Origin: Escherichia coli
Lineage (GTDB): Bacteria; Pseudomonadota; Gammaproteobacteria; Enterobacterales; Enterobacteriaceae
Reading direction: 5' to 3' (one strand)
Assembly: GCF_003334765.1 (NCBI RefSeq)
Contig: NZ_QOWT01000006.1
DNA length: 64,000 nt
Under the pieces are notes generated by a model. The model saw only the letters and a list, made by a program, of their open reading frames with translations, was not told the origin of the DNA and did no database searches. Below are positions 33,958-42,831 of the stretch, in pieces. Each line of letters opens with the position of its first letter. The stretch's first letter is position 1. A program made the position numbers and the translations under genes.

Positions 33958-35374
33958 AACCGCTCTCCAGAAGCGCCCGTTGGCGCAGCAATGAACATGG
34001 GCGATAGCGTTCTTCGCCATAGTGATGCTGTAGATTTTCAAGGAGCCTTAATATTCGCTGCCAGCCAAGTTGCGCTCCCCAGGCAAGTGGGCCATATGGA
34101 TAATTCACCCCAAGACGCATGGCGGTATCGATATCCTGTTCAGAGGCCACGCCTTTTTGAAGCGCATCAAGGGCTTCATTGATGATCATTGCTACCGTTC
34201 GCCAAATCAGCATTCCTGGGTAATCTGCAATTTGCAGCACTGTTTTGCCCTGCTGTTGCAGGTAATAAATGGCCTTGCGGGTCGCTGAGTCCGGGTTCAC
34301 CGCTGCAGCAGCAATGGTCACCACCTTGCCCGCCATTTTATCGATCACTACCACCGGGCGTGCCAGTCGTATTGCCAGCGCCTGTGCCGTCTCGCCTTGT
34401 GTCTCAATCAATAAAACATCGTCAATTTCCGTGACACCGTCACTTTTCTTTTCTACTTTCATTGGGCTAAAACTGTCGCTTACCGCTTCCAGGCCAACAA
34501 CTGCCTCACGTTCCGCGCGCCAGTCGTACACGCCCAGCCCACTTTTCTTGCCCAACCGTCCACCAATCACCAGTTCCTGTTGCACCAGCGAAGGTAAAAA
34601 ACGACGCTCCTGCCAGAAAGCGTTAAACACCGAACAGGTGACAGCAAAATTGACGTCCTGACCAATCAGATCGGTTAATTCCAGCGGCCCCATCGGGAAA
34701 CCAGCGCCATCGCGAAGTGCAGCGTCAATCACTTCTGGTGCAGCAACCTGCTCTTCCAGTGCCCGCCAGGCCTCGGAATAATAAGGACGCGCAACACGGT
34801 TAACGATAAATCCAGGAGTCGAATGACAGCGCACAGGCTGCTTACCCCAACTCAACGTTAGTTCACACAACTGCTCAACAACTTCCGCCGCCGTTGCCAG
34901 CCCACTGACCACCTCCACCAACTTCATCACCGGTGCCGGGTTAAAAAAATGCAGCCCCGCAACACGTTCAGGATTTTTTATCTCCGCAGCAATCGCGGTT
35001 ATAGAGATTGACGAAGTGTTAGTGGTCAATAGCGTTTGTGGCGGGCAAACTTCCGCCAGCTGTGCAAAGAGCGCTTTTTTGACTTCCAGACGTTCAGACG
35101 CCGCTTCAATGACCAGGTCCGCAGCTGCCAGCGCGTGAATATCGGTCACCGGGATCAGGCGTTTCAATGTGCGTTCACAGGTTTCAGCAGTCAGTTTTCC
35201 CCGCGTCACGCGTGAATTTAGCCGCGCGTGTATCCCGTCGATTGCGCGGGTCAGCGCTTCAGCAGAAATGTCATACAGTAAAACCTGGTGTCCATGACTG
35301 GCAGCAACTTCAGCAATGCCTGCCCCCATGGTGCCGCTCCCAATCACTGCCACAGTTTGCACATTTATCATCAT
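33947..35374 (-). CDS. paaH: 3-hydroxyadipyl-CoA dehydrogenase (475 aa)
   Basis: ORF 33947..35470 (-) with internal ATGATG at 35369-35374 giving MMINVQTVAVIGSGTMGAGIAEVAASHG… (Rossmann GxGxxG). Confidence 0.94.
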   Translation of the reverse strand: MMINVQTVAVIGSGTMGAGIAEVAASHGHQVLLYDISAEALTRAIDGIHARLNSRVTRGKLTAETCERTLKRLIPVTDIHALAAADLVIEAASERLEVKKALFAQLAEVCPPQTLLTTNTSSISITAIAAEIKNPERVAGLHFFNPAPVMKLVEVVSGLATAAEVVEQLCELTLSWGKQPVRCHSTPGFIVNRVARPYYSEAWRALEEQVAAPEVIDAALRDGAGFPMGPLELTDLIGQDVNFAVTCSVFNAFWQERRFLPSLVQQELVIGGRLGKKSGLGVYDWRAEREAVVGLEAVSDSFSPMKVEKKSDGVTEIDDVLLIETQGETAQALAIRLARPVVVIDKMAGKVVTIAAAAVNPDSATRKAIYYLQQQGKTVLQIADYPGMLIWRTVAMIINEALDALQKGVASEQDIDTAMRLGVNYPYGPLAWGAQLGWQRILRLLENLQHHYGEERYRPCSLLRQRALLESGYES

Positions 35375-35375
35375 G

Positions 35376-36164
35376 CTATTTCCCCGTGAACTGCGGTGAG
35401 CGTTTAGCCAGGAACGCACTGACACCTTCACGATAATCTGCGCTCCGTCCGGCAAGTCGCTGATAGTCACGTTCCAGATCCAGTTGCGTATCGAGCGTAT
35501 TGGTTTCAGCGCTATTTATCGCTTGCTTGATAAGTCCAAGACCAAATGTCGGTTGTGTCGCCAGATGCCGTGCCAGCTGTTGCGCGGTATCTGCCAGCGT
35601 TTCATCATCAACAACCTGCCAGATCATCCCCCATTCGTGCGCCTGTTCAGCACTCAGTTGATTCCCCAGCAGTGCCAGCCCCATGGCGCGCGCTCGTCCG
35701 GCAACGCGTGGCAGTAACCAGGTTCCACCGCAATCGGGTATTAAGCCTAACTTACTAAACGCCATGACGAATTTTGCTGAACGGGCAGCAATAACGATGT
35801 CGCCCCCCAGTGCCAGTGTTGCGCCTGCCCCTGCCGCCACGCCATTGACTGCACAGATCACCGGTTTTGGCAGTTTTGCCAGGCGACGTACCAGTGGGTT
35901 ATAGAAACGTTCAACTGACATCCCTAAATCCGGTGCGGGGCCTGTGGGATCAACGTTACGATCGTTAAGATCCTGACCAGCACAAAATCCGCGCCCGGCA
36001 CCTGTAAGTAACAGGCAACGGATAGTGTCGTCGCGCTCGACCTGTTTCAGGCACTCTGCCAGTTGTGCGTGCATCTCATCATTAAAACTGTTCAGGCGTT
36101 CCGGGCGGTTGAGCGTTAGTGTCATCACGCCCTTTTCTACATGACTGAGGATGAATTCCATCAT
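35376..36164 (-). CDS. paaG: 1,2-epoxyphenylacetyl-CoA isomerase, enoyl-CoA hydratase/isomerase family (262 aa)
   Basis: ORF 35376..36164 (-), 262 aa, MMEFILSHVEKGVMTLTLNRPERLNSF…. Confidence 0.95.
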   Translation of the reverse strand: MMEFILSHVEKGVMTLTLNRPERLNSFNDEMHAQLAECLKQVERDDTIRCLLLTGAGRGFCAGQDLNDRNVDPTGPAPDLGMSVERFYNPLVRRLAKLPKPVICAVNGVAAGAGATLALGGDIVIAARSAKFVMAFSKLGLIPDCGGTWLLPRVAGRARAMGLALLGNQLSAEQAHEWGMIWQVVDDETLADTAQQLARHLATQPTFGLGLIKQAINSAETNTLDTQLDLERDYQRLAGRSADYREGVSAFLAKRSPQFTGK

Positions 36165-39571: not shown

Positions 39572-40501
39572 TTATGCGACCTTACGGGCATGTTGTTTTT
39601 GTGCATGGGCCAGCGCTGCTTCCCGTACCCAGGTACCTTCTTCCCAGGCTTTACGTTTGGCGTCGAGCCTCTCCTGATTACAAATTCCGCGACCGTTAAT
39701 TACTTCGTTAAACTCCTGCCAGTCGATCTCACCAAAGCGGTAGTGACCGCTTTCAGTGTCAAAATGCAGATCCGGGTCAGGAACGGTCATACCGAGCATT
39801 TCAACCTGTGGAACGGTGTTATCCACGAAACGCTGGCGGAGTTCGTCGTTGGTGAAACGTTTGATTTTCCAGGTGAGACTTCTGGCGCTGTTTGGCGAGT
39901 TATCATCGTTTGGCCCGAACATCATTAAGGCTGGCCACCAGAAACGGTTAATGGCGTCTTGCAACATCTGCTTTTGAGCTTCGCTGCCCTGCGCCAGTGC
40001 CATGCAGGCTTCAAACCCCTGACGCTGGTGAAAACTCTCTTCTTTGCAGATTTTCACCATTGCTCTGGCATACGGGCCATAAGAAGTGCGGCATAACGCC
40101 ACCTGATTGACGATCGCTGCGCCATCCACCAGCCAGCCGATAACACCGATATCAGCCCAACTCAATGTCGGATAATTAAAGATGGAGGAATATTTCATCC
40201 GTCCGTCGAGCATTTTTTGGTAGATGTCTTCTCTGGCGCAGCCCAGTGTTTCGGCGGCGCTATAGAGATACAGACCATGACCGGCTTCATCCTGCACTTT
40301 GGCCAACAGAATGGCTTTACGCCGCAAGGTTGGTGCGCGAGTGATCCAGTTACCTTCAGGCAACATACCAACAATCTCGGAGTGCGCATGCTGCCCAATC
40401 TGGCGGATCAATGTCTTTCGGTAAGCATCGGGCATCCAGTCCTGTGGCTCGATAGCCGTTTCCTGGGCTATCCGTTGCTCAAAGCGTTCTTCTTGGGTCA
40501 C
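39572..40501 (-). CDS. paaA: Phenylacetyl-CoA 1,2-epoxidase catalytic subunit A (309 aa)
   Basis: ORF 39572..40501 (-), 309 aa, [29 protein letters not shown]…; di-iron ligand motifs (…EAGHGLY… EESFHQ…). Confidence 0.96.
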
Positions 40502-40785
40502 GTCATCACCTTTACGATTCCAGTTTTCGTGAATTAATTAAAAACACGAATCACATTGTTTTATGAAAGTTACACAATAGTTAAGTAAAATCACAAATTT
40601 TGTATGTTTGAACTGTGACGGATTTCGCACCCTATTTTTATAAATCATTATTTATCAGTGCATTAATGTTTTCCGCAGTTGCTATACAGATCGCATAGTT
40701 AACATTTCGTTAAAAGATCCCTTGCTTTTTATGATTCGCGATTTAACTATTAGCAACAGAAATGTGAAACATCTGGAGAGTAGCG
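40502..40785. promoter_or_regulatory. Divergent paaA / paaZ promoter region with PaaX-type operator half-sites
   Basis: AT-rich 284-nt intergenic region; TGATTC-containing motifs at 40534-40543 (acacgaatca, paaA-proximal) and 40732-40742 (tgattcgcgat, paaZ-proximal), consistent with the PaaX operator core as I recall it. Confidence 0.6.
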
Positions 40786-42831
40786 ATGCAGCAGTTAGCC
40801 AGTTTCTTATCCGGTACCTGGCAGTCTGGCCGGGGCCGTAGCCGTTTGATTCACCACGCTATTAGCGGCGAGGCGTTATGGGAAGTGACCAGTGAAGGTC
40901 TTGATATGGCGGCTGCCCGCCAGTTTGCCATTGAAAAAGGTGCCCCCGCCCTTCGCGCTATGACCTTTATCGAACGTGCGGCGATGCTTAAAGCGGTCGC
41001 TAAACATCTGCTGAGTGAAAAAGAGCGTTTCTATGCTCTTTCTGCGCAAACAGGCGCAACGCGGGCAGACAGTTGGGTTGATATTGAAGGTGGCATTGGG
41101 ACGTTATTTACTTACGCCAGCCTCGGTAGCCGGGAGCTGCCTGACGATACGCTGTGGCCGGAAGATGAATTGATCCCCTTATCGAAAGAAGGTGGATTTG
41201 CCGCGCGCCATTTACTGACCTCAAAGTCAGGCGTGGCAGTGCATATTAACGCCTTTAACTTCCCCTGCTGGGGAATGCTGGAAAAGCTGGCACCAACGTG
41301 GCTGGGCGGAATGCCAGCCATCATCAAACCAGCTACCGCGACGGCCCAACTGACTCAGGCGATGGTGAAATCAATTGTCGATAGTGGTCTTGTTCCCGAA
41401 GGCGCAATTAGTCTGATCTGCGGTAGTGCTGGCGACTTGTTGGATCATCTGGACAGCCAGGATGTGGTGACTTTCACGGGGTCAGCGGCGACCGGACAGA
41501 TGCTGCGAGTTCAGCCAAATATCGTCGCCAAATCTATCCCCTTCACTATGGAAGCTGATTCCCTGAACTGCTGCGTACTGGGCGAAGATGTCACCCCGGA
41601 TCAACCGGAGTTTGCGCTGTTTATTCGTGAAGTTGTGCGTGAGATGACCACAAAAGCCGGGCAAAAATGTACGGCAATCCGGCGGATTATTGTGCCGCAG
41701 GCATTGGTTAATGCTGTCAGTGATGCTCTGGTTGCGCGATTACAGAAAGTCGTGGTCGGTGATCCTGCTCAGGAAGGCGTGAAAATGGGCGCACTGGTAA
41801 ATGCTGAGCAGCGTGCCGATGTGCAGGAAAAAGTGAACATATTGCTGGCTGCAGGATGCGAGATTCGCCTCGGTGGTCAGGCGGATTTATCTGCTGCGGG
41901 TGCCTTCTTCCCGCCAACCTTATTGTACTGTCCGCAGCCGGATGAAACACCGGCGGTACATGCAACAGAAGCCTTTGGCCCTGTCGCAACGCTGATGCCA
42001 GCACAAAACCAGCGACATGCTCTGCAACTGGCTTGTGCAGGCGGCGGTAGCCTTGCGGGAACGCTGGTGACGGCTGATCCGCAAATTGCGCGTCAGTTTA
42101 TTGCCGACGCGGCACGTACGCATGGGCGAATTCAGATCCTCAATGAAGAGTCGGCAAAAGAATCCACCGGGCATGGCTCCCCACTGCCACAACTGGTACA
42201 TGGTGGGCCTGGTCGCGCAGGAGGCGGTGAAGAATTAGGCGGTTTACGAGCGGTGAAACATTACATGCAGCGAACCGCTGTTCAGGGTAGTCCGACGATG
42301 CTTGCCGCTATCAGTAAACAGTGGGTGCGCGGTGCGAAAGTCGAAGAAGATCGTATTCATCCGTTCCGCAAATATTTTGAGGAGCTACAACCAGGCGACA
42401 GCCTGTTGACTCCCCGCCGCACAATGACAGAGGCCGATATTGTTAACTTTGCTTGCCTCAGCGGCGATCATTTCTATGCACATATGGATAAGATTGCTGC
42501 TGCCGAATCTATTTTCGGTGAGCGGGTGGTGCATGGGTATTTTGTGCTTTCTGCGGCTGCGGGTCTGTTTGTCGATGCCGGTGTCGGTCCGGTCATTGCT
42601 AACTACGGGCTGGAAAGCTTGCGTTTTATCGAACCCGTAAAGCCAGGCGATACCATCCAGGTGCGTCTCACCTGTAAGCGCAAGACGCTGAAAAAACAGC
42701 GTAGCGCAGAAGAAAAACCAACAGGTGTGGTGGAATGGGCTGTAGAGGTATTCAATCAGCATCAAACCCCGGTGGCGCTGTATTCAATTCTGACGCTGGT
42801 GGCCAGGCAGCACGGTGATTTTGTCGATTAA
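40786..42831 (+). CDS. paaZ: PaaZ, bifunctional oxepin-CoA hydrolase / 3-oxo-5,6-dehydrosuberyl-CoA semialdehyde dehydrogenase (ALDH N-domain plus MaoC-like hydratase C-domain; 681 aa)
   Basis: ORF 40786..42831 (+), 681 aa, [29 protein letters not shown]…. Confidence 0.96.

Follow-up and report, generated by a model that had tools for sequence, protein, structure and literature searches.

Two TGATTC motifs in the divergent paaA-paaZ control region of Escherichia coli: very probable arms of the known PaaX operators

The genes paaA and paaZ of Escherichia coli are transcribed divergently from a short intergenic gap, in which a first-pass annotation had marked two TGATTC-containing, operator-like motifs. 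The question raised by this locus is whether these motifs belong to operators of the repressor PaaX and, if so, how far each operator extends. Sequence comparison points to the two motifs being, very probably, the promoter-proximal arms of two PaaX operators at the divergent E. coli paa promoters, and the feature as a whole is the pair of PaaX operators already known from the control region of the E. coli paa genes. The analysis covers the window, meaning the entire 64-kb stretch of DNA under study, in whose coordinates all positions are given.

The control region and its two motifs

The genes and the gap occupy the following positions.

39572-40501, minus strand: paaA, with a GTG start at 40501; first gene of paaABCDEFGHIJK
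40502-40785, no strand: paaA-paaZ intergenic control region, 284 nt, about 32-33% G+C
40786-42831, plus strand: paaZ, with an ATG start at 40786
29939-30889, minus strand: intact paaX gene for the cognate repressor (316 aa, TIGR02277)

The DNA is E. coli chromosome. Over the 484 nt around the gap (window 40402-40885) it shows 99.8% identity to K-12 and 100% identity to several strains, and no operator position differs between K-12 and the window. The single difference from K-12 in this comparison is at 40721, C here and T in K-12, just upstream of a conserved CTTG block that precedes the Pz box. The 484-nt stretch is matched in 3132 of 5426 complete E. coli genomes, with the flanking genes annotated as paaA and paaZ in every record; because only these genomes have the region, the paa cluster is not universal in E. 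coli. Three copies of the region in this genome collection are plasmid-borne.

The identity of the flanking genes is supported by NCBIfam equivalog models (TIGR02156 with 517 bits for PaaA, TIGR02278 with 1210 bits for PaaZ) and by the annotation that RefSeq gives to identical DNA. On the minus strand, the remaining cluster genes from paaB to paaK, with paaX and paaY after them, are intact. PaaX scores 410.9 bits against TIGR02277 (cut-off 264.55) and matches PDB 8A39 over its full length with an E-value of 1e-206, and its gene lies 9.6 kb from the operators within the same cluster. The reading frame of paaH (window 33947-35470) is unbroken here, while in K-12 strain JW5437-1 (locus L001, 7547-8973) paaH is annotated as a frameshifted pseudogene.

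The description of the gap as 284 nt of AT-rich DNA holds, its G+C content being near 0.33, compared with about 0.53 for the genes on either side. Motif 2, given as tgattcgcgat, is present as TGATTCGCGAT exactly where it was placed, at 40732-40742, and is unique in the 64-kb window. Motif 1, acacgaatca, was correct as a string (ACACGAATCA, likewise unique in 64 kb) but not in its position, which is 40544-40553, ten bases to the right of the reported 40534-40543. The statement that the motifs lie next to the gene starts is loose, the hexamers being 46 nt from the paaA start codon and 48 nt from that of paaZ. The term operator-like suits them as promoter-proximal arms of PaaX boxes and falls short in size, each operator being a two-part site of about 40 bp and not one of 10-11 nt.

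The bare hexamer TGATTC, as originally spotted, carries no signal by itself, since it is not enriched in the 64-kb window (39 matches against 40.4 expected); the signal sits in the two-part arrangement. An unbiased repeat search of the gap returned the motif pair as the first-listed and longest inverted repeat, 13 nt in length and 85% complementary. The arrangement TGATTC-N26-28-GAATCA, allowing at most one mismatch, occurs three times in the window against 0.71 expected, with two of the three inside the gap, and no dinucleotide shuffle of the gap out of 5000 reproduced two such boxes. The third match, at 17065-17103, is treated as chance; it lies inside a 585-aa reading frame and reaches a score of only 5.6 with the trained operator model.

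A 15-mer consensus for these sites, WWTRTGATTCGYGWT, was reportedly given by Ferrandez et al. in 2000 as an imperfect palindrome common to the Pa and Pz footprints. In the window, this sequence has zero-mismatch matches only at the Pa and Pz sites.

40543-40557, minus strand: 15-mer AATGTGATTCGTGTT around the Pa promoter-proximal half-site, zero mismatches to WWTRTGATTCGYGWT
40728-40742, plus strand: 15-mer TTTATGATTCGCGAT around the Pz promoter-proximal half-site, zero mismatches to WWTRTGATTCGYGWT

Two-part boxes in the window and across species

The E. coli PaaX box is published as TGATTC(N27)GAATCA (PMC9493321, citing Kim et al. 2004). Reading each motif together with an inverted partner hexamer gives the following assignments, to which a third, candidate site upstream of paaX is added.

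40515-40553 (read 40553 to 40515), minus strand: complete Pa operator (assigned PaaX box), TGATTC-N27-GAATCG, model score 21.4, rank 1 in the window
40548-40553, minus strand: Pa promoter-proximal half-site TGATTC (motif 1), unchanged in 28 of 28 Enterobacteriaceae and in 8 diverse E. coli
40515-40520, minus strand: Pa distal half-site GAATCG, 5/6 match to GAATCA, with GAATC invariant in 28 Enterobacteriaceae
40732-40771, plus strand: complete Pz operator (assigned PaaX box), TGATTC-N28-GAAACA, model score 19.4, rank 2
40732-40737, plus strand: Pz promoter-proximal half-site TGATTC (motif 2), invariant in 28 Enterobacteriaceae
40766-40771, plus strand: Pz distal half-site GAAACA, 5/6 match, the least certain part
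30891-30928, minus strand: candidate Px operator, TGATTC-N26-GAAGCG, third-best match of the two-part model, directly upstream of the paaX ATG

The Pa box thus carries one mismatch to the published box, and its end lies 14 nt before the paaA GTG, the distal arm abutting the ribosome-binding sequence AAAGGTGA. The Pz box carries one mismatch in its distal arm and has a spacer of 28 in place of the published 27.

A two-part weight matrix was built from 84 half-sites of 42 paaA-side boxes from species other than E. coli, and the whole 64-kb window was scanned with it. Such a scan had been proposed as a check, and it returned Pa (21.4), Pz (19.4) and the upstream region of paaX (11.7) as the top three matches. 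In shuffled windows the best score reached 21.4 in 1 of 200 and 19.4 in 3 of 200. A model of the single half-site was rejected as unspecific: its best match falls in coding DNA at 22023-22036, several equal ones are also found in coding DNA, and Pz ranks seventh. The candidate at 30891-30928 lies in the 100-nt gap between paaK and paaX, ends at the paaX ATG and has two mismatches in its distal arm, and its first arm also makes the tight palindrome TGATTcataAATCA. Its score of 11.7 is ordinary, and it is the position that is notable, since autorepression by PaaX at its promoter Px has been reported (PMC9493321). The candidate is probably the Px autoregulatory operator, as judged by its sequence and location.

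A search with PaaA yielded 80 loci. Among them, Enterobacterales as well as Acinetobacter and its relatives share the divergent paaZ/paaA arrangement, which is absent from the Bacteroidota loci. Lack of conservation across paa clusters had been named as an outcome that would speak against the operators, and the opposite is observed: the Pa box is found in 43 of 43 Enterobacterales sequences (E. coli and 42 other species), and the paaZ-side TGATTC in all 28 Enterobacteriaceae. Perfect TGATTC-N26-28-GAATCA occurs at Pa in 40 of the 42 other species, and the remaining two, Citrobacter sp. R56 and Rosenbergiella, have the distal arm GAATCG, as in E. coli. In the alignment of the 28 Enterobacteriaceae gaps the centre is unalignable, the paaZ-side TGATTC and the paaA-side distal GAATC are invariant, and the paaA-side TGATTC is in the same place throughout, Rosenbergiella being offset by an alignment indel. 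The bases that precede TGATTC differ among species (A/G-T) and the hexamer itself is constant. Among eight diverse E. coli strains, taken from the whole range of identity, several dozen gap positions are variable, some of them in each spacer, and all four hexamers are unchanged. The A+T content of the Pa-box spacer averages 78% over 43 species, against 69% for whole gaps.

Beyond the Enterobacteriaceae, in Providencia, Xenorhabdus, Serratia and Enterobacillus (loci L029-L041, L043, L044 and L053; 16 species), the paaZ side has an invariant TGATAC and the paaA-side TGATTC/GAATCA is unchanged. One repressor therefore appears to accept both TGATTC and TGATAC, as both hexamers occur within those same genomes. 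On the paaA side of Acinetobacter, several loci have TGATTT-N26-GTATCA and one has TGATAC-N27-GTATCA.

The distal arm at Pz is more variable. At N27-28, the other Enterobacteriaceae mostly have GTAACA, otherwise GAAACA, GAACCA or GCAGCA; three Buttiauxella/Cedecea species give no match within two mismatches, and in more distant genera (Providencia, Serratia) the sequence is not recognisable as a PaaX arm. This arm resembles an ArcA-type TGTTA element, so its conservation could have another cause. The conservation of the Pz TGATTC could likewise be partly promoter-related, because the hexamer lies within the core promoter spacer.

A third GAATCA-like arm is present inside the spacer, 13-17 nt past the first TGATTC, in loci L016, L018 and L022, and also in L026, L027 and the Serratia loci; an example is TGATTCACA-N10-TGTGAATCA, with the usual GAATCA after it. 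E. coli retains only TTCGTG...CACGAA of this arrangement. One further locus, L005 (JAEYLX010000046.1), is a 10-kb contig binned as a Bacillota metagenome whose paaA protein is 95% identical to that of E. coli; it is probably an enterobacterial contig in the wrong bin.

Promoters, other regulators and competing readings

The placement of the boxes relative to transcription and to other regulators relies on published sites. The supplements of PMC3798270 (Table S8) give, for each predicted ArcA box, its sequence, its genome coordinates and where it lies with respect to the known start site, and the start sites were back-calculated from these entries.

40696-40716, plus strand: published ArcA box upstream of paaZ, tagttaacatttcgttaaaag, numbered -62 to -42 from the start site of paaZ (PMC3798270); inside a conserved alignment block
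40556-40609, plus strand: 54-nt ArcA-P site of the paaA promoter with four direct repeats, as published (PMC3798270), exact sequence match to the window
40758, plus strand: Pz transcription start, back-calculated from PMC3798270
40560-40569 (near 40563-40566), minus strand: approximate Pa transcription start, back-calculated from PMC3798270, with an estimated interval width
40614-40629, plus strand: CRP-like site TGTGA-N6-TCGCA, largely conserved in Enterobacterales alignments, assigned to CRP by its consensus
40653-40665, plus strand: putative IHF site, consensus match TATCAGTGCATTA (WATCARNNNNTTR), conserved within E. coli and not across genera

The Pz start falls at 40758 because tagttaacatttcgttaaaag, at 40696-40716, is listed as -62 to -42. 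The Pz box would then span about -26 to +14, with the start site and the -10 region both inside it. The Pa box would lie wholly downstream of its start site, roughly at +10 to +50 (back-calculated start, ±5 nt). The ArcA footprint at Pa extends from -46 to +11, the ArcA sites block paa induction without oxygen, and ArcA and CRP act on Pa (PMC3798270). A predicted SrsR (YgfI) box from genomic SELEX, acggatttcgc (PMC9181523), corresponds to 40618-40628 and overlaps the CRP-like site. A second possible CRP site, TGTGA-N6-TTAAC at 40580-40595, was set aside, since its TGTGA occurs only in E. coli and is not retained in other genera. In E. coli the centre of the gap (about 40630-40690) is A+T-rich, and in Enterobacter, Lelliottia and Leclercia (loci L002-L028) it is G+C-rich and unalignable; any IHF input may be lineage-specific, because the gap centre differs so much among genera.

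A perfect 9-nt inverted repeat, AATAGTTAA / TTAACTATT, is located at 40576-40584 and 40743-40751. The sequence TTAACTATT precedes each gene in the same orientation, at -15 to -7 of Pz and within the published ArcA site at Pa, and may be a shared -10 region that overlaps an ArcA repeat. A consensus promoter scan gave a single match, at 40563-40591 on the plus strand, which was discarded because it fits neither promoter and one match is the count expected by chance.

These positions also bear on what else the motifs might be. It is very improbable that the TGATTC hexamers are core promoter or other elements, for example part of a TATGAT -10 hexamer at Pz. The Pz sequence TATGATTC does contain TATGAT, a 5/6 match to TATAAT, and the hexamer lies between a conserved CTTG block (-35-like) and a conserved TTAACTAT block (-10-like); however, with the Pz start at 40758 by the published numbering, TATGAT occupies -28 to -23 and is no -10 hexamer. 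The identical hexamer at Pa is located past the start site, a position at which a promoter element would not be expected, each hexamer has an inverted partner at a fixed distance of 26-28 nt, and the promoter scan picks neither. Slightly less credible still is a conserved hairpin in the 5' untranslated RNA of paaA, formed by the inverted Pa hexamers and controlling translation or stability. Transcription does include the Pa box (about +10 to +50), the two arms are able to pair, and the distal one adjoins the ribosome-binding sequence, but none of the seven predicted pairs has a compensatory change among 23 species, the changes being absent or one-sided (covariation term -0.18 kcal/mol). The fold is no better than that of shuffled sequences (z-score -0.56; 58 out of 200 shuffles equal or exceed it in stability), Rfam gives no match, and the same arrangement is found across the Pz start, where only the distal arm would be transcribed.

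That the motifs are sites for CRP or ArcA is hardly tenable. Both regulators do act on Pa (PMC3798270), and motif 1 reads TGTGATTC, in which the CRP half-site TGTGA is embedded; yet no TCACA-like second arm follows 6 nt past that TGTGA, the conserved CRP-like site occupies 40614-40629 instead, and the published ArcA sites at 40556-40609 and 40696-40716 exclude both TGATTC sequences, an ArcA box consisting of TGTTAA-like direct repeats 11 bp apart. The variation of the bases before an otherwise constant TGATTC argues in the same direction. A chance resemblance in A+T-rich DNA would agree with the chance frequency of TGATTC and with the equal half-site matches in coding DNA, but it is practically dismissed: no gap shuffle held two boxes, the model scan ranked the three PaaX-associated regions 1 to 3, and the boxes stay invariant from genus to genus while the rest of the gap changes fast, a conservation by which chance is excluded. 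The reading as arms of PaaX operators is therefore retained below.

Repression by PaaX and relation to known systems

The functional part of the first-pass annotation, that PaaX represses both divergent promoters and is released by phenylacetyl-CoA, agrees with the literature. PaaX represses Pz, Pa and its own promoter Px (PMC9493321), and phenylacetyl-CoA, not phenylacetate, releases it (PMC9493321; PMC4498308). It competes with RNA polymerase at Pz and Px and acts differently at Pa (PMC9493321). The sites described here have the box layout, the core-promoter placement, the cognate paaX in the cluster and the conservation across divergent paaZ/paaA clusters that characterise PaaX operators.

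When phenylacetyl-CoA is absent, PaaX would occupy the Pa and Pz boxes, binding as such being taken from the cited papers. At Pz, a box covering the -10 region and the start site would exclude RNA polymerase. At Pa, the box would begin just past the start site and stop 14 nt before the paaA start codon, and since it is downstream of the start, repression there must differ from simple exclusion. This back-calculated placement, with Pz straddled and Pa occupied downstream, agrees with the reported competition at Pz and different action at Pa (PMC9493321). With 33-34 bp, or some three helical turns, between the centres of its hexamers, each box would present both arms on the same side of the helix, and PaaX may bind as a dimer across a bendable spacer. 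Phenylacetyl-CoA made by PaaK would bind PaaX and take it off the DNA, with CRP, IHF and ArcA presumably acting on the 284-nt gap as well.

Compared with the E. coli Pa and Pz operators described earlier (Ferrandez et al. 2000), the organism, the locus, the two-part box and the repressor in cis are the same. Against the published box, the E. coli distal arms at Pa and Pz are each one base off (GAATCG and GAAACA), and the Pz spacer is 28, not 27. The PaaX boxes of E. coli W at Px and at penicillin acylase (pac) are two-part sites of this type for the same repressor; the Px candidate here has a weaker distal arm and overlaps the region of the paaX start codon, and pac is absent from the window. 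The TetR-type repressor PaaR of Burkholderia, Thermus and Corynebacterium also represses paa promoters and responds to phenylacetyl-CoA, but it belongs to a protein family unrelated to PaaX, and its operator is a compact 15-bp inverted repeat, ACCGACCGGTCGGTT, not a long-spacer box (PMC9493321). PaaX itself is a textbook catabolic repressor sensing a CoA thioester, worked out experimentally on the same DNA more than 20 years ago, and the operator pair adds no new biology. The usable yield consists of a map giving exact window coordinates for the control region and of a cross-species operator model that finds all three PaaX targets, Px as a candidate, in 64 kb.

The PaaX boxes of Pseudomonas and Acinetobacter likewise consist of two hexamers in inverted orientation, separated by about 26 bp and placed upstream of paaA, with a TGATAC/GTATCA-like hexamer in contrast to the TGATTC/GAATCA of E. 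coli. Del Peso-Santos et al. in 2006 are said to have described this TGATAC/GTATCA-like half-site for PaaX in the paa/sty systems of these genera.

A rather unlikely variant of the PaaX reading is that the repressor has no uniform symmetric box and is anchored on one strong half-site with variable secondary contacts. It would fit the order-wide conservation of the Pz proximal arm alone (TGATTC or TGATAC), the fixed, weakened GAATCG at Pa in E. coli, where almost all other Enterobacterales species have a perfect palindrome, and the third arms found in several species about 17 nt from the first. If PaaX did bind by one anchor, the strength of repression could be tuned for each promoter and each species.
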